This document shows, in pieces, positions 25,329-51,453 of a stretch of 64,000 bases of DNA (positions are counted from its first letter, which is position 1; every line of letters starts with the position of its first letter). The DNA comes from Rhynchopus sp. YZ270_cl-10 (taxonomy: Eukaryota). Position numbers and translations under genes: made by a program. Under the pieces are notes generated by a model, which was given only the letters and a program-made list of their open reading frames with translations, was not told the origin of the DNA and made no database searches. The DNA lies in the NCBI GenBank assembly GCA_964035575.1, contig OZ037833.1, positions 1 through 64,000 of the forward strand. Reading direction: 5' to 3'.

Positions 25329-25634
25329 TTTGTGTGGTAGAGTTGTGACATTGGATAAAAAAAGAAAACGAAATACAAAATAGCGATAAGTGGGGATATG
25401 TCTTTGTGGGCTTACGGGTTTTCGGGTTTTGTTGTCAGTTATTTTTTGTTTGTTATTTGTTTTCCTAATTTTTCCTACTCCCCCCATTCTATTTGAATAT
25501 TTTGTCAGACACAGAATATCAAATCACATGATACAACAACAAAAAAGGAATAACCTATTTTTTAAATAATTCTGAGAACATTTTTATTCATCACCAGTCA
25601 TTACATAACAGAAAAACATAACACACCGTAAACT

Positions 25635-28415: not shown

Positions 28416-31400
28416 CCCAAGTGTCACCAGACTTGATGTTCATCTTGCAGGCCAGCAAAGGCTGTACTACTTTCCTGGCAAGGAGGCAGAGGCGCTTGAC
28501 AAGGCCACGGACACAACACTCACAGCCTGGTTTGCTGCAAATAGCGACGCAAAACGTGACCCGTCTTCCAAGTACCAGGGAATACAAACCCTAAACTACA
28601 TCACTGTTCCTGAATACTTTGCCTTCTCCAGAGATAAAGCAGAGTGGACCCTGAGGAAAAGCTACGTGTACTGCCCCAGGACTGAGTCGCTTGTCACAAC
28701 GGACAGATCACGAGCTGCAAAGTCCCATCTTCTGGCTATTGGTCGCCTGTACAGAACCCCTGTTTTGGATAAGGAGCTCCAGGCTCTGCGCACGATCCTC
28801 ATGGTGAGAAAAGGACCCACTAGCTTTGATGACCTGATGACTGTAGAAGGGAAAAAGTGCGAGTCCTTTACGGATGCAGCAAATGAAATGGGGCTCCTTC
28901 AGGGTGGTAAACTTGTGAAGCTTACACTTGTGGATGCAGTCAAAACCACTGTGTCAGGAAGATGCCTCAGGTTTACCCTTGCTGTTCTACTCAACTCCTT
29001 TGCTATTCCTCCTAATGACATGAAAGAACTCTGGAAGACATACAAGGTGGAGCTGTGCAAGCGTCCTCTGAAGCAGGGAGAGACTGCACCGGATGAGGAG
29101 GCTACGGTATCTGAGCAGGAGGAAAATGAAGCACTGTTGGATATTCAGAATGTGTTGAGAAACATTTGTGGGTCGGATGTAAAGCTAGAAGTCTTTGGAC
29201 TTCCAACACCAACTGCTGCTGTGAGGAGTGCGAACGATGGAGTATCTTGGGTTATGAAAGATGAAATCTACAACATGGAAAAGCAGTGGCAGGAGTGGGA
29301 GAAGATTGAACCTAAGCTCAATACAAAACAGAGGGATGCAGTTCAGCGTGTTCAACTCTCTGTGACTCAGGGCAAAGGCGAGATGTTTCTGCTTCAGGGT
29401 GCTGCAGGGACTGGAAAAACGTTTACCTACCAAGCCATGCTCAGTTGGTGCAGAAGCCACAGAGGGGTTCCGGCGCAAGGTGACACGCATCGTCCAAACA
29501 TTGCCCTTGCAGTTGCGAGCTCTGGCATTGCAGCAATGCTCCTGCCTGGAGGAAGAACATCACACAACAGATTCAAGTTTCCTCTTGATCTGTACCCAGA
29601 TGACCACCACTCTGTCTGCAAACTGACAAAAGAAATTGAGGATCTCATCCGCGCAACGGATCTCATTGTCTTTGACGAGGTGGTTATGGCAAACAGGGGC
29701 CATATAGAACTTCTCGACAGAACCTGCAGAAAGGTTACCGGAAAGGCCATGTGGTTTGGTGGAATCACTGTGGTTCTTGGTGGAGATTTTAAGCAAATTC
29801 TTCCTGTCACTGAGGGAGACAAGAGTGCCACGCTTAAAAACTGTCTGCATACTTCTCCTCTCTTCCAAAACATGACTATGCTGTCCCTTATCGAGATAAT
29901 GAGGCAGAAGGATGACAAAGAATGGGCTACCTACCTGGGAACCATTGGTGATGGGTCGCGCAACGATAGAGACAGTTCCATATCTCTCCCAATAAACCTC
30001 TACCGAAAGAATTGTGGGAATTATGTTGTACCTGATGATTTAATCACCCACGTCTTCCCTCTGATTGGGGAAGGTGTAGTTGGAAATGGCATGATCCTTG
30101 CACCTACTAACAAAGCTCAGAAGGCAATGAACAACATTTGCCTCAAGAGGCTGTGTGGGAAACAAAAAGAAGTACTCCATGAGTTCCAGCTGACAGGGAA
30201 GGACACATGCACAGAGGAGTCTGTTGAGGGGGAATCTGCCATTGACTCAGACGTAATGAATGCGTACCAGCAGACAGGCATACCTGACCACTGCATCACT
30301 GTCAAGGTTGGTGCTCCTCTAATGTTGCTCAAAAACCTCAACCCACCAAAGGGTCTCTGCAACGGAACGAGGTTTATTGTGACTGGCGTGACACAGCTCA
30401 ACATTCAGGGTATCATTGTGGGAGACCCTCAAAGAGTTGGAATGGCAGTGAACATCCCCAGAGTTAAGAACACTCCTGACGAGAAGAAGGCTGGCTTCAG
30501 CATGCAGCGCGTCCAGTTTCCCGTCGCACTGTCATTTGCCTCTACAATTAACAAGTCTCAGGGACAGACCCTCGATAGGGTTGGACTCGACCTCACAGAG
30601 TCACAGTGCTTTGCACATGGGCAGTTGTACGTTGCTCTGAGCAGATGCCCAAAGGCAAAGCATGTCAAGGTTGCAGTGCCTCTGAAGACAAGGACCGCAG
30701 GAAACAGAAGGATAGTTGTGGAGCCGTACAGAGTGTCAAACCCTGTATACAAGGACATGCTAAAATCTGTTTCTGACCGTGGACTCGAGGGCATCTTTAT
30801 GCAGCTGACTGAAGCAGAAGAGGCCATGCTACAGAGTTACCACGTCATGACTGACAAAGAGTACTCTGAACAGACCCACAGACAAGCAAAGATGCCTCCA
30901 CCATCTGATGACCAAAAATTCTGGGACCCCATGCCAATGCAGTGCGAGAGCATTCAGTTTGAAGATGCTGAAGATCTTGTCTATGTAGCCAAAAAGAGGA
31001 AGAGAGATCCAGAAGAGAAGTCTCGTAAGAAGCGGAAGAAAAATAACCCTACATCAGCAGAAACAACAACAGCACAAAAGCCGAAGCTCTCTATTACCAG
31101 GGTTTTGGGGGATGGTACTTGCTTTTACCATGCAGTAGACCAGTCTATTACAAAGAGGATAGGACAAGGGAATCAACTCAGAAGAGAATTGGAATTGTTT
31201 GTTATGCAGAACAGCACTACAATAAAACATCATCCTCTTATTGTACCTGAAAACGCTAACACCGTATCCTCGATTGTAGGCACCTACAACGCCCTTATGA
31301 ACAGGATAACTGGCAGGATTGATGGGACGTACGCAACATCAGACTATGCAGAACAGATTGAGTTTGCCTTGGTGAGTCTCTTAAAACGTGTTCTAATAAC

Positions 31401-31653
31401 TATTGTCAAAATGAACCAAGATAACAAGCCCTCATCTTTTCACTTTTTGGGGAACAACTTGTCTACTGACCAGGTTCTTGCTAATATTCCTGCAAAAGAC
31501 AGGATTATTTTAATACATACTGCAAACCCTGATCATTTTAATATTGGTACAGGGTCTCCTGAACATGAATTGGAAACACACAAAAATGGTTTGGAACAAT
31601 TGCATAGGGGATTTCCTAATGAGATTTTATATCAAGTTGATTGGGAGCTGTGA
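28402..31653 (+). CDS. Helitron RepHel, C-terminal part (Pif1/SF1B helicase + OTU-like cysteine protease)
   Basis: VTRLDVHLAGQQ linker, Walker A GAAGTGKT, VASSGIAAMLLPGGRTSH, IVFDEV, LGGDFKQILPV, LCNGTR, QFPVALSFASTINKSQGQTL and HGQLYVALSR. OTU motifs are GDGTCFYHAV...DHFN. Confidence 0.95.
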   Translation: MRYIDPSVTRLDVHLAGQQRLYYFPGKEAEALDKATDTTLTAWFAANSDAKRDPSSKYQGIQTLNYITVPEYFAFSRDKAEWTLRKSYVYCPRTESLVTTDRSRAAKSHLLAIGRLYRTPVLDKELQALRTILMVRKGPTSFDDLMTVEGKKCESFTDAANEMGLLQGGKLVKLTLVDAVKTTVSGRCLRFTLAVLLNSFAIPPNDMKELWKTYKVELCKRPLKQGETAPDEEATVSEQEENEALLDIQNVLRNICGSDVKLEVFGLPTPTAAVRSANDGVSWVMKDEIYNMEKQWQEWEKIEPKLNTKQRDAVQRVQLSVTQGKGEMFLLQGAAGTGKTFTYQAMLSWCRSHRGVPAQGDTHRPNIALAVASSGIAAMLLPGGRTSHNRFKFPLDLYPDDHHSVCKLTKEIEDLIRATDLIVFDEVVMANRGHIELLDRTCRKVTGKAMWFGGITVVLGGDFKQILPVTEGDKSATLKNCLHTSPLFQNMTMLSLIEIMRQKDDKEWATYLGTIGDGSRNDRDSSISLPINLYRKNCGNYVVPDDLITHVFPLIGEGVVGNGMILAPTNKAQKAMNNICLKRLCGKQKEVLHEFQLTGKDTCTEESVEGESAIDSDVMNAYQQTGIPDHCITVKVGAPLMLLKNLNPPKGLCNGTRFIVTGVTQLNIQGIIVGDPQRVGMAVNIPRVKNTPDEKKAGFSMQRVQFPVALSFASTINKSQGQTLDRVGLDLTESQCFAHGQLYVALSRCPKAKHVKVAVPLKTRTAGNRRIVVEPYRVSNPVYKDMLKSVSDRGLEGIFMQLTEAEEAMLQSYHVMTDKEYSEQTHRQAKMPPPSDDQKFWDPMPMQCESIQFEDAEDLVYVAKKRKRDPEEKSRKKRKKNNPTSAETTTAQKPKLSITRVLGDGTCFYHAVDQSITKRIGQGNQLRRELELFVMQNSTTIKHHPLIVPENANTVSSIVGTYNALMNRITGRIDGTYATSDYAEQIEFALVSLLKRVLITIVKMNQDNKPSSFHFLGNNLSTDQVLANIPAKDRIILIHTANPDHFNIGTGSPEHELETHKNGLEQLHRGFPNEILYQVDWEL

Positions 31654-31923
31654 CCATACAAAAAAAGTAATAAAAAGAGAAAAATGAAAGAAGTGGTAAC
31701 AATCGGGGGTATGAAAACGGGTTGGGTTTGGTGGGTATTTTTTGGGATTGTGGGTTTGGGGGTACTATTAGTTTTGAACAAAATACAAATGAAGCATGAA
31801 ATAGGAGAGAACAAAAACAAAGGAACATTATTTATTTATTTCAATTTTTCTTCACACCCCCCACAAACATACACACACCCACAGAGTATCCACAATATGT
31901 CCCTCAATAGAGTGTCCCGACCA

Positions 31924-31980
31924 AAAATCCCAACCAAAAATCCCTGTATTTTCAATACAGGGATTTTTGGTTGGGATTTT
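31924..31980. other. Perfect 27-bp-stem, 3-nt-loop hairpin downstream of RepHel
   Basis: AAAATCCCAACCAAAAATCCCTGTATT-TTC-AATACAGGGATTTTTGGTTGGGATTTT. Confidence 0.93.
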
Positions 31981-32286
31981 GGCTCTCTCTTATGGACAGA
32001 ACGTAATTTATGGACACATTTGTCAACATTTCTGTCCATAAATCCCAAAATGGAAAAAAATATTTTTTCAAATGGCTTACTGTAGTGGCTTCAGCGGAGC
32101 AATTGCGTCGAAGTATGGTGGTCGTGGGCCCAAAAGTACGTAGTAGACATTTAGTTACTTGACATACTGAGGTCTGTGGGTATCCTTATAGGGTCATACA
32201 CAGGGAATTGTACAGTGCATATAAACTCACAAACCACAGGTTACCTGCAAACATCAATACACATACTGCAATAGGTTAACATAACA

Positions 32287-32528
32287 GTGCAAGGATGCTG
32301 TGCAAGGATGCTGTGCAAGGATGCTGTGCAAGGATGCTGTGCAAGGATGCTGTGCAAGGATGCTGTGCAAGGATGCTGTGCAAGGATGCTGTGCAAGGAT
32401 GCTGTGCAAGGATGCTGTGCAAGGATGCTGTGCAAGGATGCTGTGCAAGGATGCTGTGCAAGGATGCTGTGCAAGGATGCTGTGCAAGGATGCTGTGCAA
32501 GGATGCTGTGCAAGGATGCTGTGCAAGG
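32287..32528 (+). repeat. (GTGCAAGGATGCT)n 13-bp minisatellite, about 18 copies
   Basis: Read directly. Confidence 0.97.
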
Positions 32529-32533
32529 CCACT

Positions 32534-32860
32534 CGGGTGCACAGGGTGCCGATCGGGTGCACAGGGTGCCCCCAAAAAATCGGGTGCACAGGGTGCCAAA
32601 AAATCGGGTGCACAGGGTGCTTTTTAGCCGGGGCTTATAACGTGGGGGGCACCCTGTGCACCCGATTGCAAACCCGTATTGGCACCCTGTGCACCATATT
32701 TTTGGGGGCACCCTGTGCACCCGATTTTCAGGGGCACCCTGTGCACCCTTATTTTGGGGGCACCCTGTGCACCCGATTCAGAGCCCAAAAGGCACCCTGT
32801 GCACCATTTGGGGGCACCCTGTGCACCCGATTTGGTACCACTATGTCACCATGTGCACCC
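32534..32860. repeat. Cluster of GCACCCTGTGCACC motifs in fold-back arrangement (4 reverse, then about 6 forward)
   Basis: GGGTGCACAGGGTGC x4 at 32535-32620, followed by GGCACCCTGTGCACC copies at 32648-32829. Confidence 0.9.
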
Positions 32861-32967
32861 AATCCAGTCTGGCAATATTGGTGACCGATCTTGAGAGACA
32901 CTGGACCTAGTTTGTGTCATTATCTACAGGTTCGTGTGGCCATTCAGGTGCTATTCAGGCACTTCAC

Positions 32968-33640
32968 TGGTTCTACGTTGCGTTATCTGGCTGGTGGTTG
33001 GTGCGGGTTTGCGGGTTCGCGGGTGCGCGGGTTTGCGGGTTCTAGGTTGCGTTATCCGGCTGGTGTGGTGGTGCGGGTGCGCGGGGTTCGGGCAGTGTTA
33101 TCTGGTTGGTGTGGTTGATAGGGTTCTCGGGGTTCGGGCACGTTATCTGGTTCTAGGTTGCGTTATCTGGCTGGTGGTTGGTGCGGGTTTGCGGGTTAGC
33201 GGGTGCGCGGGTTTGCGGGTTCTAGGTTGCGTTATCTGGCTGGTGTGGTGGTGCGGGTGCGCGGGGTTCGGGCAGCGTTATCCGGCTGGTGTGGTGGTGC
33301 GGGTGCGCGGGGTTCGGGCAGCGTTATCCGGCTGGTGTGGTGGTGCGGGTGCGCGGGGGTCGGGCAACGTTATCTGGCTGGTGTGGTTGATAGGGTTCTT
33401 GGGGTTCGGGCACGTTATCTGGTTCTAGGTTGCGTTATCTGGCTGGTGGTTGGTGCGGGTTTGCGGGTTCGCGGGTGCGCGGGTTTGCGGGTTCTAGGTT
33501 GCGTTATCCGGCTGGTGTGGTTGTGCGGGTGCGCGGGGTTCAGGCAACGTTATCTGGTTGGTGTGGTTGATAAGCTGGCTGGTGGGTGCAGGTGTGCGGG
33601 AATCTGCAGGTTCTAGGTTGCGTTATCTGGTTGGTGTGGT
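32968..33640 (+). repeat. Degenerate GT-rich repeat (about 180-270-bp units built from ~45-bp subunits) containing GCGGGTTTGCGGG
   Basis: Recurrent GGTTCTAGGTTGCGTTATC(T/C)GGCTGGTG and GGTGCGGGTTTGCGGGTT. Confidence 0.88.
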
Positions 33641-33795
33641 TTTTCGTTGCACCTGCCGCCTCCGTTGGTGCTTTGTGGGTGGGCATAAGTGGCCATGTGT
33701 TGTTGACCATGCTTCCCTGCTGAGAGATATTGTATTTTTTCTTGGTATGCTGTTTATACTGTTTATACTGTTTTCTATACTTTACTTTTCTGTAC

Positions 33796-34152
33796 TGTGT
33801 GCTGTGTGTTCTGTGAAAACTGTGTGTGGGACCCAAAATACCTGTAAAAGTCTGTATATGAGGTTCTTGGGGTTTGGGCTAAAGTGGTTTGTGTTGTGTA
33901 CTATACTTCCCTGCTGACAGAGGGTGTACTGTGTACTGTGTACTGTGTACTGTGTACTGTGTACTGTGTACTGTGTACTGTGTACTGTGTACTGTGTACT
34001 GTGTACTGTGTACTGTGTACTGTGTACTGTGTACTGTGTACTGTGTACTGTGTACTGTGTACTGTGTACTGTGTACTGTGTACTGTGTACTGTGTACTGT
34101 GTAGGACTGCCCTCAGAATATGTTTTCCTTGGTCAGAGGCTCCATACAGGTG

Positions 34153-34157
<5 letters not shown>
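33796..34157 (+). repeat. Left copy (362 bp) of the long direct duplication flanking the retrotransposon; contains (TGTGTAC)n
   Basis: Matches 46057-46411 except for one extra heptamer unit, and abuts the poly(T) at 34158. Confidence 0.95.
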
Positions 34158-34206
<49 letters not shown>

Positions 34207-35241
34207 GGTGTTGTTCAACTTAGCCCTAGGCTCGCTTTTTTTTTATCTACATCCAGTGACAGAGGGGGTACTTACTAGTCAAGCGAGTATGTAAACAGCT
34301 AGATGTCCAGACAAGGGCACTTTACTATTGTACTGGCAAGACAGTGCCTGAAAACACAGTTAGTGGCACTAAAATAGAAAGCATCTGGGACAACTACAAC
34401 CAACACTTCCCTGCAAATAAGCAAAAGGGTCGTATGTGAGTGCAATTTTTCCCAAAAGGAAAAGGGGAGGGGATGGGACGGGAGGGTTGCTCTGTCTACC
34501 GGTGTAGTTTTATTTTGCTTTGTCTTGGGGAGGGGAGGGGAGGAGAAGGAGGGGATTGAGTGAGCCGTTTCCTCTGTAACACACAAACAAATAAATAGTG
34601 GAGCACACTCTAGGGTGGCTACACTAATACAACCAAGTTTTCAAATAAAAAGGAAGTTCCATAATCTTTTTAGTAGTTTTCTTTTTGGTGAAAATTTTTG
34701 AGAACTTCTGTAAGTGTGACCTGACCCGACTGACTGACACCAAAGGGGAAAACAACAATAACGCACAACAAAATCAACAACAACAATGGTGGGTCTCGTG
34801 CTTACCTGTGGTGGTTTTGAAAAATGAAAAATTTAAATTGACCTTCACAAGGTAAAAATGAAAAACTAAAAGAGTGAAAAAAGAAACTCAAAGGACAAGA
34901 GTTCTGTACAAACTCTACTCTACTGCACAATCTATAAAAGTGGCCCAATGGCTCCTGATGCCACTGGCCTGGCTCTTAGACAGGTCTTACTCCGAGACTG
35001 CCCTCTACCCTCGTCCAAGGGCTAAGGGCCGTCGCTGGGGTAGACCCGTCCTAGCCAGCAGCCAACCAAAAATATTAACAAAAAGGAAGGGGGGCGGAAA
35101 GGGGGGAAAGGGGGGGCAAACCCCAAAGGATGAAAAGAACAAAAAACACAAAATAAAAAGGGTTAAAAATAAACATGGGGCAAACTGTCATTCTCTACAC
35201 GCTTCTACACACACACTCTCACCCTCTAACTCTCTAACTCT

Positions 35242-38152
35242 CTAATTCTTTTTATTCCCCTTTTTCCCCTTCCTTCCTCCGCTCTGTCTCCCCTTCTGTC
35301 CACCACCGCGACCATTGCGCCCTCTCTGCACCTCCTGGGGCGAGAGCACATGCTGCGTCGCTTGTGCCACTGCGTCGGTGAACACGTTCGACGTGTTGGA
35401 CCTACCCTGAGCTGCATGGCGCTGGGGTCCTTTGGGAGCTGGGGAAGGAGCAGGTTGGGCGGAGGAGGTTGCATTGCCACGGCCTGCCGATGAGGAGGAG
35501 GAAGAAGTGGAGACTGCAGGTTGGGCGATGGAGGTTGTAGTGCCACGGCCTGCAGAGGTGGAGGAAGAAGAAGAAGAAGAAGAAGAGGAGGCTTGAGGTT
35601 GTCGGCCTATTCCCTCTCGAGCCGCTCGTGCCTCATTCTCCCTCCTTGTACTCTCCGCTGCAAAGGCCTGCCCCCTACTGCTCCGGTTGTCCGTCAGGGC
35701 ATGCAACGTCGACTTTGCCTTGCACTTTTCCTGAACCGACCACTCATGCAAACCCACCACCTTCATCACCTCATACCACTGAGTGAAAGTAGCGGTAGAG
35801 AGGGGGAGTGACAACAAGGGTCTGCCATCCTGTTTCTCTCCCTGACGGTAGTGGAACAGGGAGATCCACTTCGTCACAGAAGAAGGCACCGGCGACCCCA
35901 TGGTGAGGCACGGGAAAAGACCCCCCCTCTCCGTCCGCTCCTCCTCCGTCCACATCCAAGCCTCGCTCTGCGCCCTCAGCAATTCCCTCACCCTCGCTTG
36001 CTTCTTCTGGTCAGGGATGCCTTCCACTGACAGAGAATGCGAGCGATCCGCCCCCTCCATCGCGGTGTCGAGGTCCTCCTCCTGCTCCTGCTCATCATCA
36101 TCCATCTCCTCCACCTTCACACGCACCTCGGTGTCTGCCGCCTCGGCCTGTCGCCCCACCTCCTCCTCCAGCTGATCCCGAGAAGGGGTTCCCCAGCTGA
36201 CCCTGCCTTCCCGAACGACGATGACCGCGCTGGTCTTGCCCCAGGTGTCGCAGTATCCGGCCTCCCCTGCTATCTTCCTAACCGCCTGACGGGCGACCAC
36301 CGACTCCGGGCAATCACCGTCCCCCTCCCCGTTCCCACTCCACGGCTGCTGTGTCGCCCAGCAGTACAGGAACTCGCCCGGGCACGGAGAAGCACCTTGA
36401 GGACCAAAGAGAGCCATCCAGTCGCCGACACAGTCAGGTTCGAGTCCTTCAGGGTCGTCGCCCACCGCTCTCCGCACCGCATGGCAGGGGAGGAATAGCC
36501 GCCCTTCGCACACCACCCCAAAGCACCGCCCGTATGCCACCATGCGTTCTGCCTCCAGCTGTCGGGAGAGGTTCACCGCCGTCAACAACAGAGTGGTCGC
36601 CTTCTGCTCCGACTCATGCTTAGCTGCGATGGCGTAATGCCTCTCGCAGCGTTGCCTGTCATACTCCGCCCGGAGCGACTCTCCTGCTTCGGGGTGCCGA
36701 TCGCAGTCTTCCAAGTACTGCGCATGCATCTTCTTCGCGTCCTCTGCGAGTTCCCGCTTGTGCCTGGCGGTCAGCTCCTCCACACGATGCCTGTCCGCCG
36801 CCTTCGCCTGGTCCAGACGCACATTCTGTTCCTCCAGGAAACGACTCAACTCCTGCTGGCGGTCGCCAAAAGTGCCCCGAAGCGCGGCCAAATCCGGTCC
36901 CCACGACCGACGATGCTCCCGCCGTACCTCCAGGGCTTGCTGCCACGCGTCCGACGCACGCTGCAACGCTTCCTTCTTCTCCTGGTCCGCCTTTTGTTGT
37001 TGCTGCTTCTGCTGTTTCCGTTGCTTCTCGTGCTTCTGCTGCTTCTGTTCTGCCTGCTGCCCCTCTTCGCCCATTAAACATTGAACATTCGAGTGCAAAA
37101 AAGACAGGGCACTGAAATATTCCGCCCTGCCAATTTGCGACAGAGGGCAGTGCTTGGACCCCTGAGCGCAGTGCAGACATGCCAAGCCACCACACGTGTG
37201 ACAGCAGAAGTGTGCGTCCGACGCATCGAAGAGCTTGCTGCATTGTTCGCACTGCAGGAAAGTGTTCGACGCCTCCGCCTCCCTCGCTCCCACAAAAGCC
37301 ATGGGGCGCTCTGACTGGCACTCCCCCTTACCACCTGTGGCCTCAAAAGACAGGATGTGCTGCTGCAGAGCCGGGTCCATGGTGAGGGGCTCGTAGTGTC
37401 CCGGGATACTGCCGGATCCATCTGCCGCATCCTGATCACCCGAGTGGAGGAGAAGGACCACTGCCTTAGGCCGTTTTCTTGGCACCATCAGAGAAGGGCG
37501 GGCGAACTCGTTGAGGATGACCACAGATACCTCAAGAGCCTCCCCTGCCCCCGCCACTGCAATGGCATCCGCCCACGTACGCTGGTCTCCTCTGTCCCCA
37601 CTCGTCATCAGCCGCTGCCAGACCCCAAAATTAGGGACAGCCGCACTCGACAGATCAGCGCGGCCCTGGACCTTCTTCACTGCCGCCTGGCGCAGACCCT
37701 CCACCGTCAAATCCGTGCGCCCGGTGGCGAAGAGCAAAGCCTCAAAAGCACAGTCCCCCGCCACAAACGACCAAGTCACCTTCGAGGCTCCCAGCTTGGC
37801 CGCCTGCTCCGTCGCCCGAGGCCTCTGCGCTGCCGGGCACTCACGCAAAAACTCCCACTCACGCACCACATCGAGACCAGGCCCTTCCGGAATCACGGTG
37901 GCCGAATCGAACCTCCCGGTCCGCTTCCTCGGTGGCTCCACGTGGTCCGGCTTCACGTCCCTCTTGCGCTTCCCCTGCTGCTCCTCCGTTCGGTCTGCAG
38001 GACGACTCATATCGTCGTCAGGGTTCGCATCGTCACAGAGAGGTTCCACGGCCCCTGCACTGCGGCGTCCAAACCGGTCCATGTCCTCTGCAGACGGTGC
38101 CACATCTACCTCCACACACGGCTCCCGCTTCAGGGTGGCAATCCCTACACAC

Positions 38153-38154
<2 letters not shown>
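35242..38154 (-). CDS. Retrotransposon polyprotein, part 2 (in-frame continuation after the nested insert): second OTU-like domain, Cys-rich Zn finger, Gln/Glu coiled coil, Gly/Arg/Lys tail
   Basis: 970-aa open frame with AGDCAFEAL...WADAIAV...GHYEPL and CEQC...CCHTCGGLACLHC. It begins MCVG, the same residues that end the RLE part (ERGAMCVG). Confidence 0.85.
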
Positions 38155-38155
<1 letters not shown>

Positions 38156-38199
<44 letters not shown>

Positions 38200-38777
38200 G
38201 TGTTGTTCAACTTAGCCCTAGGCTCGCTTTTTTTATCTACATCCAGTGACAGAGGGGGTACTTACTAGTCAAGCGAGTATGTAAACAGCTAGATGTCCAG
38301 ACAAGGGCACTTTACTATTGTACTGGCAAGACAGTGCCTGAAAACACAGTTAGTGGCACTAAAATAGAAAGCATCTGGGACAACTACAACCAACACTTCC
38401 CTGCAAATAAGCAAAAGGGTCGTATGTGAGTGCAATTTTTCCCAAAAGGAAAAGGGGAGGGGATGGGACGGGAGGGTTGCTCTGTCTACCGGTGTAGTTT
38501 TATTTTGCTTTGTCTTGGAGAGGGGAGGGGAGGAGAAGGAGGGGATTGAGTGAGCCGTTTCCTCTGTAACACACAAACAAATAAAAAGGAAGTTCCATAA
38601 TCTTTTTAGTAGTTTTCTTTTTGGTGAAAATTTTTGAGAACTTCAGTAAGTGTGACCTGACCCGACTGACTGACACCCAAAGGGGAAAACAACAATAACG
38701 CACAACAAAATCAACAACAACAATGGTGGGTCTCGTGCTTACCTGTGGTGGTTTTGAAAAATGAAAAATGAAATTGA
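38156..38777 (-). mobile_element. 5'-truncated copy (3' UTR end + poly(A)) of the same retrotransposon family nested in the host element
   Basis: 38199-38780 is near-identical to 34206-34844 apart from a 54-bp deletion and a few substitutions. It has a 43-nt poly(T) at 38156-38198 and is flanked by CCTACACACATA at 38144-38155 and 38778-38789. Confidence 0.92.
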
Positions 38778-41700
38778 CCTACACACATAGCACCCCGCTC
38801 CAGAAAGGAAGATGCGACCTTTTTCTGGTACGCCACCGCAATGCTCTCCCGGATGCGCAACTCTGCCGACCCTGTTAGGTGCGACGTCTGTCCCGTCGTC
38901 AGGCCTCCAAGCTGCGCAATCAAGAGGTTCGCCTCGTCGCCTGCACCCCCGAAGGCTTCAAACACAATAGGGGAGAACTTGGTGTTGATCTTGTTCAAAT
39001 CCCGCTCGTGCTTCTCCCGTTTGACCTGGCCCTGGTTCTTCGCCGACCAGCCCACAAACTTCGAGGCCCCTGTTCTGTAGGAAGGCAAGGTGGGGCACAC
39101 GTGGGTGATGTCCAAACAACGAGGTCCATTTTCCGCCACTCCTACTGGGAGGTAGACATCGCCTGGCCGCTTCTTAGACTCCAACTCCACTCGCACGGTC
39201 TCCTCCAAAGCAGGGTCCAAGCCCGCCCCTTGAGCCGCTCTGTACACCGAATCCCGCAAGGCGTTGTGGCGGGCGACGCGGTGTTTGGAGTAGGGGCAGC
39301 CAAAGGTGTGGTCGCCAAAGGAGTCCATGACAACCCTTTTCTGCCCCCCCTGACATGCCGAGCAAGTCGTTCCCTCCGCATGGATGGCCACCCCTAGTCG
39401 GAAACGGGTCACAACCGCAAAATCCGCTGAAGACATCTGGTTCCTTGCTGAGGGTGTCGCCGTGAGGTACGTCCCGGAAAGCGGCAGGAGAAGGGACTTC
39501 ATCCGTGCTCGGTCTCGCATGCAGAGCTGTTGCATCAACTTGTCTGCCTGGGCGTCAATCACCGCAGATGACAGACTCTGCTGCTCCAGGATCTTCTTCG
39601 GCTGGGCCCTGTCCACGTGAAACGCCACCGGTACCCTGGAGTTGTACTCCTCAGCTGCGCTGTTCCATCTCTCCTCATCCCAGGTGAAGGCAGGGTCCAA
39701 GGCCTGCGACAGTTGCAGGTTCCCTGACTGAGAGGCGAGGGACGCAGCCGTCCGATGGTCCACTGTGCGACGGATACCCAGCCCCCCAAGCGCCACAGGA
39801 AGCGCCGCCTGCGCCCTTGCCAACTCCGGCAGCGCCCCATCCGGGTCATGCAGAAGCGCAGCCAGGCACCTGTCGATCAGGTCGTCAAAAGCCGTCAGGT
39901 ACTCCGCGCACTGTGGGATCCCCCGCATGTAGAACACCATGCGGCAGTAGCCTTCGCAGTATCTCAGTACGTAGAAGGCTGCCTGGGAGTCCCCGAGGTC
40001 CACAAGGGCTTCCAGGTTGCGGCGGGAATCGTCCACCTTCCGGGCCATGTACTCCTCGCAGAATGCCGCAGACCCAATGGGGATGCCCAAGAAATCGAAC
40101 CCATCCACATCCAACAGCCGGAACCCGCCTTCACCCATGGCGTCCTGTCCACCCTCGGTCAACGTGAACCCCACCGCCTTGAGCTCCTCCGTGGAGACGC
40201 CACCAGTGGAGATGAGCTCACACTTGTTCGCGTTCACCTCCAACCCCAGTTCGGAGCTACGAGTGCGCAGAACCTGGTACGCCTCAAAAACCGCCTTAGG
40301 GGACCCCCGCAGAGAGCCGTCATCGAGGTACCACAAAGTCCCATCCAGGCCTGGGTGCCCCTTCAGCTCTAGCGCCATCTGGTGGATGGTCAGGGAGAAG
40401 AGAAGCGGGCCCAAGGGATCTCCTTGTTGAGCTCCGCGCTGTGACCTTATGGTATCTCCACCATAAAACAGGCTGGAGGGCTCCAGGTAACACCATCGCA
40501 CCCATGGGGCCAGCTCGGGGAGGTTCGCGTCGACCGCTCTTAGCATCGACAGGCGGTCTACGCAGTTGAACGCGTTACGGTAGTCAATTTTCAAAATGAC
40601 TTTACCTTTTCCGCGGTTGCGCACGGCGTACTGCGAGATAACATCAGTCGCCACTGCCGCCCCCCTTGCCGTTGCCGCCCCCACCTGGTTCCCTCGAAGA
40701 AGAAGCGTCCTAGCAGGCACCCGCACTCGCGCCGACAGAATCTTTCCCACCAGTCTGCGGAGAGTGTCCCCAACCGCAATCGGTCGCACGTCCTCCTCCA
40801 GGCCCGGCCCCTTTGCAGGCTTCCGGAGAGCCACCAAGTTAGCGCCGGCGAAGAACTCAGCCACCTCCACTGGAGCATTTCCTCGTGCCAAAGACGTCAA
40901 CACTGCGGCCAGCGCTGCCAAAGTGCCCTTAGCCCGCCTCTGTAGGCAAAGTGTACGAAGGTGCGCGCCCGTCACGTTCGAGGGACCCGCCGCCGATGAC
41001 TTCGGCATGCTCCGCAGGGCCTTCATCACCTCCACCACTGTCACCGGTGGGACCTCCTGAGGCTGGGGCCAATCCGCCTGCTCCAGGGCCTTGGAGTCGG
41101 CAGCGGCTGGGTGCTTCGTCTGAAGCTTTTCCATCGTCGCCGGTGTCTGTGGGGCGAGGCCGTCGCTGGTAGCGCAAGACATGGCCTGGCTCGGGAGTCC
41201 TGCTCTCGCTTTGGCGATGGTGCGCTTCCGTTTCCCTTCGTCAGTGTCTTCATCCGACCACCCAGAGGGCCTTGGCTTCCGCTCCTCTACCGTTTGCTCC
41301 CACAGGGCGACATACTGGCCAGCCTTCCAAGCCTCCAAGTCCTTCCCCCAGGTGCTCGTCAAACGTCGCTCCTGGTCCTTGCCCCCTCGTTCTGTCCGTG
41401 TCCGGTGCAACACTGTGAAGAACAGTGCAAGGCGCTTCCAGGCCACCTCGTCCTGGTACTCCAGGATGTCCATGAGGACCCTCAGGAAGAGCTCGCTGTA
41501 CAGCTGTAGGTGTTTGTCTGGGCACCCGCCCTTCAGCTGGATCCTGGTGGTCCCCATGACTTCAAAGGAGGGGAGGTCATCCTGATCTGTCAGCATTCCT
41601 CGACTGGAGGGAGACGGAGCGGTGAAGCCTTCTTCGCCAAAGTGCACCGTACAGGTGTTGCAGACCTCCTTGCTCTGCGGCAATAGCATGTCGCACTGAT

Positions 41701-44700
41701 CGTTCGCACAGCGCGACATGCCCAAGTGGCCCAACAGCTCGTCGGGGATGTACGCCCCATCGGCCTGGTGGCGACGCATGTGCTGCAGCAAGCCCTTACG
41801 AGACAGGCCCCCGACCGCATCACTCGAAGACAAAATTCCCGCTCTGCATCCATCAAAGGGGCAGAACACCCGATCCGCATTGATGTGTCCCAGCTTGGTA
41901 GCCAGGGGGGCGGTGGTGGTGGTGTTGGTGGGGATGATGCCATCCAAATGCGCTGTGTCCAGCACTGCCTGCCGAGCCTCCTTCCTCATCTTCTCTGCCA
42001 TCCCCTCCTTGGTCTTCCCCACCTCCGGGACAAGCTCCACTGCCTCAAAGTGAGAGTCACAGAGAGCGATGACGACCGTGGGAAGTTTCGCTTGGAAGCT
42101 CTCCGCGTACGACTTGGCGACTCTTTTGCTACCAGGGGTGATGCGCACGAGGGGGTTCTCTTCCGATGCCTGCACCACCACGATGTTGATGCGGGATGCT
42201 GTCGCGGTGAGCTGAAGCCCCAAGTGGTTGAGGTGGGCCTCGCCGGTCACACCATTGGCAAACTCCGTCATGGCCTCCTGCGACCCCAGCACCTGCACCA
42301 GGCGGTTCGACACCTCCACTGCTGTGTCATATAGCTGCTTGCGCATTGCCCTCACGTCCGGCTGCGTGTCGTGGTCCCAGAGGTGTAGTGCCACATAACC
42401 ACAATCATTAGTAGACACGTTGGGGATGCGTTTAGCTCCAAACTTCGCCAGAGTCGCGTCCACAGACACCGCCTGCTCTGTATACGCAGGAGCGTTCACG
42501 TTTGCGCACCCACCGGTCAACGCAAACGGGGACAAGCTTACCGGGTGCTCCGGATCAGCAGGGGCAGGGCGCAGGTCCCAGGGCGTCACCGCTCGCCACA
42601 ACAACGACAGCAAGACCAGTAGGGACACCGCCAGCATGCCAAATGCCATCCCGATCCTACGAGTCCACCTGCGTGCTGCCACACGGCGCACCTCCAAGAG
42701 AAGAACCCAGCCAAGTGGGCGCGCGACGCCGACCAGTGCCACAAAACCCGCCAAACAACCACCTGCGGACCATGCAACCCACACCCACTCGGCTGCACGC
42801 ACCGACAACTGACCCACCCCCATCACACTGGCTCTCACCAAGCTGGCAGCCACTCGGATCCCTCCGGTCCATCGGTGCACTCGCTCGCTCGCCCCTTCCA
42901 GCCACCGCCACCCCCTGCGTGCGCGGCACAGTCCCCGCAGCAGACCCACCCCCAGCACCTCCGCGTCCCGAAACAGCGCACAACCCAAAGCATGTGGCGC
43001 TGACCTCCCAAGCTCAGACCCCACAAAAACCAGAACCCAGATGGCCACACACTGCAAAGCACCTCTCAACGCATCGGCGACCCTGATCCTGCGGAAAACT
43101 GGGTGCGCTGTCGGGGAGGGCGGACGATTGCAGGGCGCCTTGCGCCGACGGAGCCTGCCCGCCTGTGACTTGGTCCAGTTCAAGGACCGGTGTCCTCGTC
43201 GCGTCCTCCTGGTCCTCCTGCCCACCAGCCACAAAATGAGATGACTGAGGGTAGGGGCGCGTCTGTCCTTCCACAGATCCAGGACCGCGAACGACACAAA
43301 CACTCCCCACTCAGGTGCCTCGGCTACCCAGCAGGGGTCAGGCTGACGCAAGGAGGTGAAGACCTCCCAGAGGTTGCACCACCAGTCGAACCAAAACTCT
43401 ATCTGTGCACACCCCTTTTGCCACACCCGCATCATCACACAGCCACTCTGTCCTTCTCGCCCCGCAAGGCTGACCCCGAACACCAGCATACCTCGCTCAC
43501 CACCCCCTAGGTTGTTGTCGCTGATGTTGTTGCTGCGTCTGCTGTTGATGTTGGTGCTGCTGTTGGACCTGCTGTTGGAACTGCTGCTGCAGAAGTCTTT
43601 GGAACTGCAGTTGAAACTGCTGTTGTGCCTGCTGTTGGAACTGCTGCTGGAACTGCTTTTGGAGACGCTGTTGGAACCGCTGCTGCAGAAGTCTGTGGAA
43701 CTGCTGTTGAAACTGCTGTTAAGCCTACTGTTGGAACTGCTGTTGGACCTGCCGTTAGAGCTGCTGCCGCAGAAGTCCTTGCTGATGAAACTGCTGTTGT
43801 GCCTGTTGCTGGAACTGCTTTTGGAAACGCTGTTGGAACTGCTGCTGCAGAAGCCATTGGAACTGCTGTTGAAACTGCTGTTGTTGAGCCTGCTGTTGGA
43901 ACTGCTGATGGACCTGCCGTTGGAGCTGCTGCCGCAGAAGTCCTTGCTGATGAAACTGCTGTTGTGCCTGCTGTTGTGCCTGTTGCTGGAACTGCTTTTG
44001 GAAACGCTGTTGGAACTGCTGCTGCAGAAGCCATTGGAACTGCTGTTGAAACTGCTGTTGTTGTGCCTGCTGTTGGAACTGCTGCTGGACCTGCTGTTGG
44101 AACCGCTGCTGCAGAAGTCTGTGGAACTGCTGTTGAAACTGCTGTTAAGCCTACTGTTGGAACTGCTGTTGGACCTGCCGTTAGAGCTGCTGCCGCAGAA
44201 GTCCTTGCTGTTGAAACTGCTGTTGTTGAGCCTGCTGTTGGAACTGCTGATGGACCTGCCGTTGGAGCTGCTGCTGCAGAAGTCTTTGGAACTGCAGTTG
44301 AAACTGCTGTTGTGCCTGCTGTTGGAACTGCTGCTGGAACTGCTTTTGGAAACGCTCGTGGAACTGCTGCTGCAGAAGCCGTTGGAACTGCTGTTTAAAC
44401 TGCTGTTGTGCCTGCTGTTGGAACTGCTGTTGGACCTGCTGTTGGAACCGCTGCTGCAGAAGCCTTTGGAACTGCTGGTGAAAAAGCTGTAGAGCCTGCT
44501 GTTGGAACTGCTGCTGTAAAGGCCTTTGGAACTGCTGCTGCTGCACACCAGGGGTGATACTGGGACCCCACCCAGGACTCCGAAGATTTCGTTTTTGCTG
44601 CTATCACAGTTGCAGCCACTGATGTGGTTGGGCATACATTGCCTCTTTTTGGGGATATCATGGGGGGAAGGGGGGTGTGGGTTGTTATGACAACAGTTCT

Positions 44701-44853
44701 TTGCTTTGTTGCCTCCACACACGTTTTTGTTGCTGCTATCAAAGCTGCAGCTGCTTGGGTTGTTGGGCTCAAGAGGCCTCTTTTTGGGGTAAAAAAGGGG
44801 GGGAAGGGGGCTCCTGCTACTGCTGTTGATGCAGCTTAAGTTGTTGCTCCTGT

Positions 44854-44894
<41 letters not shown>

Positions 44895-45811
44895 TTGTTG
44901 CTGCTGTTGTTGCTGCTGCTCTTGTTGCTGCTGTTGCTGCTGCTGCAGTTGCAGCTGGTGTAGCATATGTTGTTGCTGCTGTTGCTGCTGCTGCTGCTGT
45001 TGCTGCTTTTGTTGCTGCTGTTGCTGCTGCTGCTGTTGCTGCTGTTGCTGCTGTTGCTGCTGTTGCTGCTGTTGCTGCTGTTGCTGCTGTTGCTGCTGTT
45101 GCTGCTGTTGCTGCTGTTGCTGCTGTTGCTGCTGTTGCTGCTGTTGCTGCTGTTGCTGCTGTTGCTGCTGTTGCTGCTGTTGCTGCTGTTGCTGCTGTTG
45201 CTGCTGTTGCTGCTGTTGCTGCCGTTGTTGCTGCTGCTGCAGTTGCAGCTGGTGTAGTATATGCTGCTGTTGCTGCTGTTGCTGCTGTTGCTGGTGTTGC
45301 TGCTGTTGCTGCTGTTGCTGCTGTTGCTGCTGTTGCTGCTGTTGCTGCTGTTGCTGCTGTTGCTGCTGTTGCTGCTGTTGCTGCTGTTGCTGCTGTTGCT
45401 GCTGTTGCTGCTGTTGCTGCTGTTGCTGCTGTTGCTGCCGTTGTTGCTGCTGCTGCAGTTGCAGCTGGTGTAGTATATGCTGCTGTTGCTGCTGTTGCTG
45501 CTGTTGCTGGTGTTGCTGCTGTTGCTGCTGTTGCTGCTGTTGCTGCTGTTGCTGCTGTTGCTGCTGTTGCTGCTGTTGCTGCTGTTGCTGCTGTTGCTGC
45601 TGTTGCTGCTGTTGCTGCTGTTGCTGCTGTTGCTGCTGTTGCTGCTGTTGCTGCTGTTGCTGCTGTTGCTGCTGTTGCTGCTGTTGCTGCTGTTGCTGCT
45701 GTTGCTGCTGTTGCTGCTCTTGTTGTTGCTGCTGGTGTAGCTCCTGCTGCTGCTGCTGATGCAGACATGCAGCACCACCCACAACGCCCCCAAAAGGGCC
45801 TTCCTCCTCAT
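38778..45811 (-). CDS. Retrotransposon polyprotein, part 1: Ser/Asn repeats, hydrophobic segments, OTU-like domain, Zn fingers, reverse transcriptase, CCHC knuckle, restriction-like endonuclease
   Basis: RT motifs VRPIAVGDTLRRLVGK, KIDYRNAFN, QRGAQQGDPLGPLLF, WYLDDG and FLGIPIG (CRE-type). Knuckle CSAC...GDHTFGC, then RHNALRD and RPGDVY...LDIT (RLE). OTU motifs NDCGYVAL...SHFEAV. The first ATG is at 45811; the ORF track starts at a TTG at 45931. The last 21 aa of the track ORF come from the nested insert. Confidence 0.93.
44845..45757 (+). repeat. (GTTGCTGCT)n / CTG-type coding microsatellite with a 216-bp higher-order duplication
   Basis: Read directly. The landmark GGTGTAGTATATG recurs 216 bp apart. 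It encodes SNS repeats in the retrotransposon frame. Confidence 0.93.
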
Positions 45812-46000
45812 TTTTAAAAAAGCAAAAACCAAAAAACGAAAACAAAGAAGGACAAGACACACTACGCCTTGCGCTTCGCCGGCCTGCACTCCTCTACCGT
45901 TGCCCAGGGACCGCCCCGTGGAGGCGTACAAGGCTCACAATAAAACAAAGGAAAGGGGGAGGGAGGGAGGGTAAAAAGAAAGGACAAGTGTGTTGTAATG

Positions 46001-46055
46001 TGTAAAAAATGGTCCCCTTGTAAAAAATGGTCCCCTTTGTAAAAAATGGTCCCCT
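46001..46055 (-). repeat. Three tandem 18-19-bp repeats at the retrotransposon 5' terminus
   Basis: TGTAAAAAATGGTCCCCT(T) x3, immediately inside the right direct repeat. Confidence 0.9.
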
Positions 46056-46056
46056 G

Positions 46057-46411
46057 TGTGTGCTGTGTGTTCTGTGAAAACTGTGTGTGGGACCCAAAAT
46101 ACCTGTAAAAGTCTGTATATGAGGTTCTTGGGGTTTGGGCTAAAGTGGTTTGTGTTGTGTACTATACTTCCCTGCTGACAGAGGGTGTACTGTGTACTGT
46201 GTACTGTGTACTGTGTACTGTGTACTGTGTACTGTGTACTGTGTACTGTGTACTGTGTACTGTGTACTGTGTACTGTGTACTGTGTACTGTGTACTGTGT
46301 ACTGTGTACTGTGTACTGTGTACTGTGTACTGTGTACTGTGTACTGTGTACTGTGTAGGACTGCCCTCAGAATATGTTTTCCTTGGTCAGAGGCTCCATA
46401 CAGGTGAAAGG
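46057..46411 (+). repeat. Right copy (355 bp) of the long direct duplication
   Basis: Matches 33796-34157 with one fewer TGTGTAC unit (offset 12261 before the array, 12254 after). Confidence 0.95.
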
Positions 46412-46634
46412 TGAAAAGTTTTCAAGCAAAAAAAAAAGTTTTGCCTGTGAAAGTCATAGGGTGCCAATCTCAAGGGCACCCTGTGCACCCTTTTTCCGGA
46501 CCCAAAAAGGCACCCTGTGCACCCTTTCTCGGGGATCAAAAGCACCCTGTGCACCTTTTCAAAATCCAGTTCCGGGGGGTTTCGGGAGGGTTTCGTGCAG
46601 TGGGTTTTGAAGCACCCTGTGCACCCTAGATACC

Positions 46635-47415
46635 CTGTGCAAGGATGCTGTGCAAGGATGCTGTGCAAGGATGCTGTGCAAGGATGCTGTGCAAGGATGC
46701 TGTGCAAGGATGCTGTGCAAGGATGCTGTGCAAGGATGCTGTGCAAGGATGCTGTGCAAGGATGCTGTGCAAGGATGCTGTGCAAGGATGCTGTGCAAGG
46801 ATGCTGTGCAAGGATGCTGTGCAAGGATGCTGTGCAAGGATGCTGTGCAAGGATGCTGTGCAAGGATGCTGTGCAAGGATGCTGTGCAAGGATGCTGTGC
46901 AAGGATGCTGTGCAAGGATGCTGTGCAAGGATGCTGTGCAAGGATGCTGTGCAAGGATGCTGTGCAAGGATGCTGTGCAAGGATGCTGTGCAAGGATGCT
47001 GTGCAAGGATGCTGTGCAAGGATGCTGTGCAAGGATGCTGTGCAAGGATGCTGTGCAAGGATGCTGTGCAAGGATGCTGTGCAAGGATGCTGTGCAAGGA
47101 TGCTGTGCAAGGATGCTGTGCAAGGATGCTGTGCAAGGATGCTGTGCAAGGATGCTGTGCAAGGATGCTGTGCAAGGATGCTGTGCAAGGATGCTGTGCA
47201 AGGATGCTGTGCAAGGATGCTGTGCAAGGATGCTGTGCAAGGATGCTGTGCAAGGATGCTGTGCAAGGATGCTGTGCAAGGATGCTGTGCAAGGATGCTG
47301 TGCAAGGATGCTGTGCAAGGATGCTGTGCAAGGATGCTGTGCAAGGATGCTGTGCAAGGATGCTGTGCAAGGATGCTGTGCAAGGATGCTGTGCAAGGAT
47401 GCTGTGCAAGGATGC
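46635..47415 (+). repeat. (GTGCAAGGATGCT)n 13-bp minisatellite, about 60 copies, preceded by four GCACCCTGTGCACC motifs (46475-46626)
   Basis: Read directly. Same unit and orientation as 32287-32528. Confidence 0.97.
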
Positions 47416-47764: not shown

Positions 47765-48470
47765 AGCTGGTGTGGTAATGAGGCAGAAAAGACGCTCTTT
47801 AACACATCTTATCATGTACCTGGGAGGGAGACTCAAATGACAGTCATTGGGATAAAAATGGAGCACTTGAAAGCTTCACCTTCCGCCCCTAATGTGTACC
47901 AAGTAATGGAACACTGGCATCTGCATGAACTCACTTTTTTTAGCAGGGTGGTGTGTGGTAATGAGGAAGAACAGAGGCCTTTTCACACAGCTCACGCCTG
48001 GTTCGCGTGCGCGCTTCGCGCGCCCGCTCACTGTAGCAAGTGGGTGAACCACTGGTACAGTTGTTCAACATGACAGGCGCTGAAAAAAAATGACAGGGGC
48101 ATGCCCAAGTGCGCTAGCGCCCAGCTAGGTGTGATCGGTACTTCGTCTGCGGCTTTTGTTAATACTCTCAGCATTTAAAAGCCTCAGGGAAATGAGGCAG
48201 AACAGAGGCCTTATAACAGCCCACGCCTGGTTCGCGTGCGCGCTTCGCGCGCCCGCTCACTGTATCAAGGGGGTAAACCACTGGTGCAGTTTTTCAATGC
48301 ACCTTTCTGTGCAAAAATGGCACTTAATACTTTATAATATGCCACGAAGATCAATAGAGGCAGCGCTGACAGCCGTCTGCCCAAGTGCGCAAGCGCCCAT
48401 CGAGGTGTATTTGACACTTCGTCTTAGGCTTTAGTTAACATTCTAAAAATTGTATAGCCTCAGAGAAGTA
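47765..48470 (-). repeat. Diverged tandem repeat (about 240-280-bp units) related to the satellite GC block, in the opposite orientation
   Basis: CACGCCTGGTTCGCGTGCGCGCTTCGCGCGCCCGCTCACTGTA x2, GCCCAAGTGCGCxAGCGCCCA x2 and GTGTGGTAATGAGG x2. Confidence 0.75.
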
Positions 48471-49639: not shown

Positions 49640-50460
49640 TTATTGGTGCCTGTACCCATCTCTCTGTGCGTCACGGTGCTGGCGCAAGCGGTCCCAGAAG
49701 GCCTGGCGCGGATGTTGGCCCATCCTGCAGACCCATCCTGCGCACCTATCGTCACCACCAGACGCATTGTTGTGGTGGAAGTTCTCGTGCAGCACCCACG
49801 ACCGGCGGTACCCATCCGTCAGCAGCATCTGGCGTGGCTTTGCGTACTCGGCACACAGCGCCCCATGCACGTACATCCCTGTCTCCATCACGTTGTGCTC
49901 CCAGGTCATGTCGTGTCCCGAGAGCTGGTACTCGAACCTCCTGCGTTGTGTACGTCACCCCCTCAGGCCAGTAGATGCACTCGTACGCACCGCACAGGAA
50001 GTTCGGCATCGTTGCGTCGGGCACCACCAGCGACGACGTCCCAACAGCCCCGCACCTGTTCCCCAGCGTCTCCACCTCCGCCGCACCCAGGGCACGCGAG
50101 TACACACGCACGTCCTACGAAGACCTGTCTGCACACGCCCACGCAGTGTCGGCGGAGCTGTTCCCGATGGACAGGTGCGAGCAGGAGTTCCCGTACGAAA
50201 GTGTGACGGACATGACGTCGCGCACGGTGAGTGGACTTTGGTGCGCTGTCTGCTGGGCCGGGCCTTGTGACGCTGTCGCTGAAAGTGGGGCAGGCGGGTG
50301 TGCTGCTGCAGTCTGAGGCGGTGACGGTTGCCGAGGACGCAGGGCGTGTGTCGGTGGCAGTGCTGCAGTAGGAAAACTCGAGCGGCACGTACGCGAACAG
50401 GCTTGCCCCTCCTGTCCGATGTCTGCCAGCGCACAGCGTGCCTCGCAGCGGTTGAACGAA
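49640..50460 (-). pseudogene. Degraded GC-rich coding fragment, possibly LamG/concanavalin-like
   Basis: GC-rich island with broken frames. [14 protein letters not shown] resembles the LamG C-terminal motif, and an in-frame stop lies directly before it. Confidence 0.4.
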
Positions 50461-50497
50461 CACACAATACCCCGACAGTTAGTGTTTGTTTTTTGTC

Positions 50498-51243: not shown

Positions 51244-51323
51244 TTTGTTGAAATTTTCTGGCTTTTTCTGAACTTTTCCCAGCTACTTTTCTGGTCGAGT
51301 AGCCATTTTCAGTAAAATAGCTA

Positions 51324-51453
51324 CCGTAATCGTAAGAATGCTGGGGCGTAAAATTTTTGGGACGTAAATATTCTGGGGCGTAACAAAACTGGGACATTTT
51401 GGGCTTTTTTAAACTTGGGACATTTTTACGTCCCAGAATTCTTACGATTACGG
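51324..51453. mobile_element. 130-bp MITE, 30-bp TIRs (28/30 match), TA on both sides; Tc1/mariner-pogo-like
   Basis: TA|CCGTAATCGTAAGAATGCTGGGGCGTAAAA ... TTTTACGTCCCAGAATTCTTACGATTACGG|TA. Confidence 0.82.

Follow-up and report, generated by a model that had tools for sequence, protein, structure and literature searches.

Long direct repeats flank a giant non-LTR retrotransposon

We analyzed a 64,000-nt stretch of the Rhynchopus sp. YZ270_cl-10 genome (contig OZ037833.1 of assembly GCA_964035575.1, positions 1 to 64,000; hereafter the window), in which a full-length retrotransposon without long terminal repeats (LTRs), here called element E, lies on the minus strand between two directly repeated copies of a block of about 360 bp, here called block B. 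Block B is best read as a target-site duplication in which the second strand would have been broken about 360 bp away from the site where a nick primed the reverse transcription, and we put the probability of this reading at roughly 0.7. The repeats themselves were confirmed and the long duplication is probably real, seen here at one insertion in one assembly.

A preliminary description of this DNA had reported direct repeats of about 360 bp that lie flush with the element's poly(A) tail and 5' end and differ by one TGTGTAC unit, which blastn, a repeat search and Tandem Repeats Finder (TRF) all bore out. The blastn alignment of 33796-34157 with 46057-46411 had 362 columns at 98.07% identity with a 7-nt gap as the sole difference, and the repeat search paired 33796-34095 with 46057-46356 at 100% (family D5). 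Both copies contain a perfect GTGTACT array, of 25.7 units on the left and 24.7 units on the right according to TRF. Outside the arrays the copies are 100% identical over the 128 nt upstream (33796-33923 and 46057-46184) and the 54 nt downstream (34104-34157 and 46358-46411). Judged from the sequence, a chance origin of these 182 identical non-array bases is impossible.

The borders of the block coincide with those of the element. A run of 48 T (T48, 34158-34205), the minus-strand poly(A) of E, directly follows the left copy, and the 5' end of E (46056) directly precedes the right copy, which places the poly(A) inside the pair of 355/362-bp blocks; a single T (34158/46412) is assignable either to B or to the poly(T). 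No third copy of B was found in the 64-kb window by blastn (copy number, 2), and in the same search the flanks outside the block (33650-33795 and 46413 onward) matched neither each other nor any other partner.

Element E encodes a reverse transcriptase and an R2-like endonuclease

E carries the hallmarks of long interspersed nuclear elements (LINEs), namely 3' poly(A) (runs of T48 and T43), a 5'-truncated copy and flanking direct repeats in combination with a lack of LTRs, and can be classed from these sequence features as a non-LTR (LINE) retrotransposon of the target-primed reverse transcription type. Its length is 11,265 bp after subtraction of the nested copy and of one copy of the nested duplication. 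Two long open frames were found in E, 38711-45934 (P0001) and 35242-38211 (P0002), which appear to be the halves of one open reading frame (ORF) split only by the nested copy, because the protein-database paralog P0003 (2570 aa, 99% identical) runs uninterrupted across the nested-insertion site with the sequence ...ERGAMCVGIATLKREP...; E was taken as a whole copy because P0003 continues to the same C-terminus. The 5' 2.2 kb of E consists of 9-, 12- and 84/177-bp repeats of the CAG/CAA type that read as poly-Q in one frame and are S/N-rich in the reverse transcriptase (RT) frame. Further copies of E were absent from the rest of the 64-kb window (blastn).

The RT of E matched the PDB profiles of R2 (1e-13) and of L1 ORF2p (7e-11). 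The 231-aa stretch that follows it was modeled by AlphaFold2 (AF2) with a predicted local distance difference test score (pLDDT) of 80.3, and the top seven Foldseek matches of this model were all R2 proteins (E-values of 1e-4 to 5e-3; query TM-scores, TMq, of 0.47-0.59). Eleven residues of the stretch, C42, C45, H60, C64, R73, H74, E95, P108, D110, D126 and K156, were invariant in eight family sequences. On this model the domain is an R2-like restriction-like endonuclease (RLE) of the PD-(D/E)XK type, C-terminal to the RT.

Two OTU-like domains were also recognized. The C-terminal one was modeled as a deubiquitinase-type OTU fold with a pLDDT of 72.8, gave Otu2 and the OTU of Crimean-Congo haemorrhagic fever virus (CCHFV) as the best Foldseek matches (E-values of 6e-5 to 1e-3) and is conserved in P0004, P0005, P0006 and P0008. 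The N-terminal one was matched weakly by Pfam in the homologs P0006 (E-value of 0.005) and P0019 (3e-4) and above the cut-off in the relative P0122 (4.5e-16), and BLASTP detected no similarity between the two segments. The zinc-finger-like motifs at the N-terminus of E had no Pfam match.

Pfam searches detected no apurinic/apyrimidinic-type endonuclease (APE; Exo_endo_phos) in the two ORF parts of E or in four sub-segments (E-value ≤5), none in eight other-frame or 5' segments of E, none in eight homologs and none in the 35 of 150 listed relatives that were picked for their N-terminal extensions. In the alignment, there was no conserved unassigned stretch before the RT that would be big enough for an APE. 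RNase H was likewise missing from the Pfam results for the frames, sub-segments, other-frame pieces and 5' pieces of E, and one out-of-frame ORF had Pfam matches at chance level only.

The combined RT and RLE core matched 14,946 cluster representatives with an E-value of 1e-3 or less, and E is therefore a branch of a very large assemblage of RLE-bearing LINEs; its matches in the ESM Atlas were unnamed RVT_1 clusters only. By its domains E can be assigned to the RLE-bearing LINEs (the wide R2 group that includes R2, R4, NeSL, CRE, Hero and Utopia), an assignment to the group and not to a named clade. Among the relatives with RT and RLE, P0020 and P0024 had an N-terminal Prim-Pol domain (PF09250; 27.3 and 24.1 bits with a cut-off of 22.8) and others had OTU, PHD plus RFX, MLLE or C2H2 domains, which makes the accessory N-termini very diverse.

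Table 1. Positions in the window of element E, the flanking duplication, the nested copy and the upstream Helitron ORFs
Feature	Position	Strand	Details
Helitron Rep/helicase ORFs (two long ORFs), upstream of E	25632-31653	+	Helitron_like_N 1.2e-28, PIF1 8.7e-49
Block B, left copy	33796-34157		362 bp; terminates at the poly(A) of E
(GTGTACT)25.7 array, left copy of B	33924-34103		TRF
Full-length non-LTR retrotransposon E	34158-46056	-	11,899 bp with nested copy
Poly(A) tail of E (T48 on + strand)	34158-34205	-	
3' untranslated region (UTR) of E	34206-35241	-	34207-34849 recurs in nested copy (blastn)
3' part of the single ORF of E (P0002)	35242-38155	-	stop codon 35242-35244
C-terminal OTU-fold cysteine-protease domain, then Cys-rich zinc-finger-like motifs	37102-37914	-	AF2, Foldseek
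Nested insertion duplication, left (CCTACACACATA)	38144-38155		
Nested 5'-truncated copy, E family	38156-38777	-	poly(A)43 (38156-38198) and 3' UTR; breaks ORF of E
Nested insertion duplication, right (CCTACACACATA)	38778-38789		
5' part of the ORF of E	38790-43489	-	start from paralog gene model, uncertain
CCHC zinc knuckle and RLE	38795-39487	-	invariant residues, AF2, Foldseek
RT domain	40160-40798	-	Pfam RVT_1, E-value 4.4e-16
N-terminal zinc-finger-like motifs (CPFDGC...HMRRH; C..C...C..C)	41645-41869	-	by eye, conserved in alignment A1
N-terminal OTU-like segment (NDCG...DH...H[FY]E)	41945-42517	-	alignment; weak Pfam matches in homologs
CAG/CAA-type tandem repeats, 5' region of E	43549-45755	-	
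Three 18/19-bp repeats, 5' terminus of E	46001-46056	-	end at 46056
Block B, right copy	46057-46411		355 bp; begins at the 5' end of E
(GTGTACT)24.7 array, right copy of B	46185-46357		TRF

The second E-family insertion made a short duplication

The nested insert consists of a poly(T)43 and then 580-odd bp with a match to the 3' UTR of E at 97.6-99.2% identity on either side of a 46-bp indel (blastn). The 46 bp are positions 34596-34641 of the outer 3' UTR, which are absent from the nested copy, and the outer and nested elements therefore derive from slightly different subfamily variants. A 12-bp duplication had been described around this copy; that it is short and belongs to the same family was upheld, and its length was refined to 9-12 bp given that the first three nucleotides of CCTACACACATA may be element sequence.

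A distant second-strand break as the probable origin of block B

Under the target-site-duplication reading, the empty site would have had the structure L-B-R, where L and R are the left and right flanks of the block. A plus-strand nick would have fallen at the B|R border, after ...GTGAAAGG(T), its 3' OH would have primed the cDNA on the poly(A) by target-primed reverse transcription, and the cDNA would have been extended to the 5' end of the RNA. At the L|B border, which is 355-362 bp from the nick, the minus strand would have been broken either by the endonuclease of E or by a host process, and fill-in of the two single-stranded B stretches would have left B on either side of E. One heptamer unit may later have been gained or lost via slippage, and the truncated family copy would later have entered the ORF of E with its 9-12-bp duplication.

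This reading is favored by the exact coincidence of the ends of B with the poly(A) on one side and with the 5' terminus of E on the other. The two copies of B are perfectly identical apart from the heptamer count while paralogs differ by several percent, which points to copying of B in place. The preliminary description had likewise placed second-strand cleavage about 360 bp from the first nick, which stands as the most economical reading of exact ends and identical copies, but the two arguments attached to it, the heptamer array and the rank of R9 as an extreme, did not hold. The proposal that the cut was shifted by the array, or that the array looped out, received no support: as single-stranded DNA, B folded like its shuffles (-28.1 versus -26.7 kcal/mol, z of -0.51), and the duplicated length would still be 182 bp without the array.

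Several points weigh on the other side. The reading is drawn from a single insertion, and scans of sequence collections were empty, in which an exact 26-nt pattern from the 3' end of E had 0 matches among metagenome contigs and protein queries from E found no relative in metagenome, genome and viral contigs. The family has one further insertion in the window, and the duplication there is short (9-12 bp). No read or contig spans either copy of B with its 173-180-nt heptamer array, so that a single B at the empty site is presumed, and the structure comes from one assembly. Finally, B and R lie within a multi-copy Helitron-like repeat, other copies of which contain other poly(A) elements.

We weighed four rival explanations, all of which need extra coincidences and which even when pooled are unlikely. 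Six public sequencing runs contained about half of the sampled words of 27001-37000. Only contigs were used; they were mapped on two short stretches beside the heptamer array and can cross neither the array nor the poly(T). At 46358-46634 there were 155 contigs in run X1 (79 of them below 99% identity), 25 in X2 and 54 in X5, and loose ends near this stretch had R-like sequence after non-B sequence. The right part of B and R are, to judge from these matches, a multi-copy, variable repeat, in keeping with the Helitron surroundings. E and B appear to sit inside the 3' part of a Helitron, with 13-mer arrays and GGCACCCTGTGCACC-type motifs on both sides of the insertion. In other copies of the E family among the contigs the 5' end exits into unrelated sequence (loose ends at 46044 in X1 and at 46018 in X2), and B is therefore not part of the element.

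Because the Helitron-like repeat has been hit by other poly(A) elements, explanations of the recombination type are possible at low odds. Two E insertions in the same orientation, the first at L|B and the other about 360 bp away at B|R, could have occurred in different alleles or near-identical Helitron paralogs and been joined by a crossover into L-B-E-B-R, with the ordinary short duplications of the original insertions lost in the recombinant. Such a history would suit a multi-copy host sequence that is repeatedly struck by poly(A) elements, as in X2, where the 5' end of an element adjoins the GGGTGCACAGGGT Helitron motif, in X5, where a poly(A) run adjoins position 46593, and in the nested insertion within the same 12 kb. 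It requires, however, two same-orientation events 360 bp apart as well as a crossover, and with identical B copies and paralogs that vary by several percent only allelic partners fit; E itself gave no sign of a chimera, though this was not testable here. We regard this origin as improbable.

The repeated, Helitron-like nature of B and R also means that homologous targets exist for a 5' transduction. Here transcription from upstream of a progenitor at L|B of another Helitron copy would have given rise to an RNA with B and some of R at its 5' end. A second Helitron copy would have primed the cDNA of this RNA at its own B|R, and the far end of the cDNA would have annealed to the homologous R, resulting in a seamless B-E-B. 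The new nick would then have to fall within the short transduced homology, and a B from another Helitron copy should differ, variants being common, whereas the blocks are identical; moreover, no progenitor is known. These demands make the transduction very improbable.

Three absences were noted among the contigs. Positions 46116-46184 had no contig cover in any of the four runs mapped, which proves nothing either way; no contig among the matches listed bridged 46056|46057, and none of the loose ends among them had poly(T) or another B directly after B, which are equally uninformative. For an assembly artefact, in which the second B or the placement of E between the B copies would stem from repeat-rich misassembly, the missing element-B junctions among the contig matches listed are a weak point in favor, and arrays and multi-copy repeats abound in the region. 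Yet a misjoin would not set one copy exactly against the poly(A) and the other exactly against the 5' terminus at a distance of 11.9 kb, and the difference of one heptamer unit between them is what two real loci would show, which renders an artefact quite improbable.

Two contigs of run X4 look as expected from an element-free L-B-R site. One of 285 nt leads from the right part of B into R (46360-46634, with 9 differences), and one of 199 nt joins 146 nt of non-element sequence to the left part of B (46064-46113); neither spans the heptamer array, so that they leave the singleness of B unshown. They bear on a B-B tandem that existed before E and was split by it precisely between the two units, E itself causing hardly any duplication or none. 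The neighborhood is rich in tandem repeats of many periods, but E would have had to strike the one phosphodiester bond between the B copies, and the X4 contigs run into and out of B with no B|B branch among the matches listed (a weak point); we hold this origin to be the most improbable of all. The target-site duplication stays our preferred reading.

Comparison with Dualen, R9 and R2

The preliminary description had treated the 126-bp duplication of the rotifer element R9 as the known extreme, a view that is outdated since the median for Dualen-4b_cRei is 915 bp (PMC9977147). The following account of Dualen and R9 draws on that study (Lopez-Cortegano et al. 2023, Genome Res 33:45), which followed mutation-accumulation lines of Chlamydomonas reinhardtii. 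Thirteen of 25 de novo insertions of Dualen-4b_cRei, a LINE of ~13 kb, had flanking duplications of a length that qualified them as structural mutations (median 915 bp, 95% interval of 299-1497) and the remaining 12 had no duplication of more than 50 bp; duplication length was unrelated to insertion length or truncation (PMC9977147). Large duplications surrounded other Dualen families too, and the authors compared them with R9 and suggested the joint action of the APE and RLE of Dualen as the cause (PMC9977147).

E resembles Dualen-4b_cRei as a giant LINE (11.3 kb versus ~13 kb) with an RLE and a cysteine protease, with a duplication of hundreds of bp on both sides, with lengths that vary between insertions and with both full-length and 5'-truncated copies. 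The mix of long and short duplications in Dualen matches the long one around E and the short one around the nested copy. The protease of Dualen is Josephin-related according to a figure legend in PMC9977147 while that of E has an OTU fold. The 355-362 bp of E are at the low end of the 299-1497 interval of Dualen, and the Dualen duplications were seen de novo while that of E is deduced from one fixed structure. Dualen combines APE with RLE while neither APE nor RNase H was detected in E.

Kojima and Fujiwara, when describing Dualen in 2005, reportedly noted an RNase H domain in Dualen/RandI. Dualen/RandI is listed among the RNase H-bearing clades (PMC4640811), and E, with no APE or RNase H detected, is therefore not a canonical Dualen. 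LINE/Dualen annotations in cryptophytes appear in a 2025 paper, and the range of Dualen-like elements therefore extends beyond green algae.

R9 is not known to have an APE. Like E, it is an RLE-type LINE of the R2 group with an unusually long target-site duplication, which is 126 bp in bdelloid rotifers (Gladyshev & Arkhipova 2009, Gene 448:145, as cited in PMC9977147). R9 is reportedly rDNA-specific, whereas E lies in a Helitron-like repeat; the duplication around E is ~3 times as long as that of R9, and that around the second E-family copy is only 9-12 bp. Our literature search returned no long duplications in APE-less LINEs beyond R9, and on LINEs with long duplications or with OTU or Josephin domains it returned nothing besides the Chlamydomonas study of 2023, the preprint of that study and citations of R9.

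R2 elements make small changes to their target. Their proteins (PDB 9nl2, 9dou, 9nl3, 8gh6 and 8ibw-z) share with E the domain order RT, CCHC knuckle, PD-(D/E)XK RLE, with ~15% identity in the RLE. R2 is small and 28S-specific according to published abstracts, whereas E is ~11 kb in length and has two OTU-like domains and a long poly(A), and the two E-family insertions were without site specificity.

Implications for second-strand cleavage

Second-strand cutting and its positioning are the least understood step of LINE integration. Long LINE duplications are already known from Dualen, the two-endonuclease architecture of which is so far the sole explanation put forward for duplications that reach hundreds of bp. 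What sets E apart is that an APE appears to be missing, a feature that bears on the origin of distant second-strand breaks. Should further copies confirm it, a long duplication without an APE would argue against the two-endonuclease explanation and represent a second, independent system for distant second-strand breaks. Whether giant, OTU-bearing, RLE-only LINEs outside Dualen routinely make target-site duplications of hundreds of bp is doubtful at present. Were it so, very distant second-strand breaks would not need the pair of RLE and APE proposed for Dualen and could reflect a trait shared by giant elements or by their hosts, such as remote action by a second protein copy or a break made by the host. 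Such insertions would duplicate host sequence at each event and thereby be a source of segmental duplication. The present evidence, one structure in one assembly, is a lead and not a result.

Genomic surroundings

No Rfam family scored above its gathering score in the 64-kb window, and the target is therefore not rDNA or small nuclear RNA. Downstream of E, two near-identical GC-rich hairpins about 225 bp apart were seen by eye (~48004-48036 and 48228-48266), which look like duplicated Helitron 3' ends. The 13-mer array (GTGCAAGGATGCT) was perfect both at 32287-32528 (18.6 copies) and at 46635-47415 (60.1 copies), and GGCACCCTGTGCACC-type motifs were found at 32533-32859 and 46475-46560, the left ones also forming 19-20-nt perfect inverted repeats.

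Positions 1-20000 of the window are occupied by ~20 kb of satellite DNA with tandem units of ~1029 bp at 98% identity and an 11-kb higher-order repeat, including long, near-A-free arrays with an 8-bp shift at ~5500-10700 and ~16800-19700 (GC of 0.62, AT skew of -0.98). An actin gene was found on the minus strand at 49958-51517, where a single open frame matched the Pfam Actin family across most of the profile (E-value of 2.4e-69); actin in one open frame points to a eukaryotic host with few introns in its actin gene. At 54290-64000, also on the minus strand, an open frame with a length of 3236 aa or more, which exits the window, had HYR-like (HYR_4C) matches and internal repeats at ~56000-60000, and it is probably the gene of a giant repetitive protein of the surface or adhesion type.

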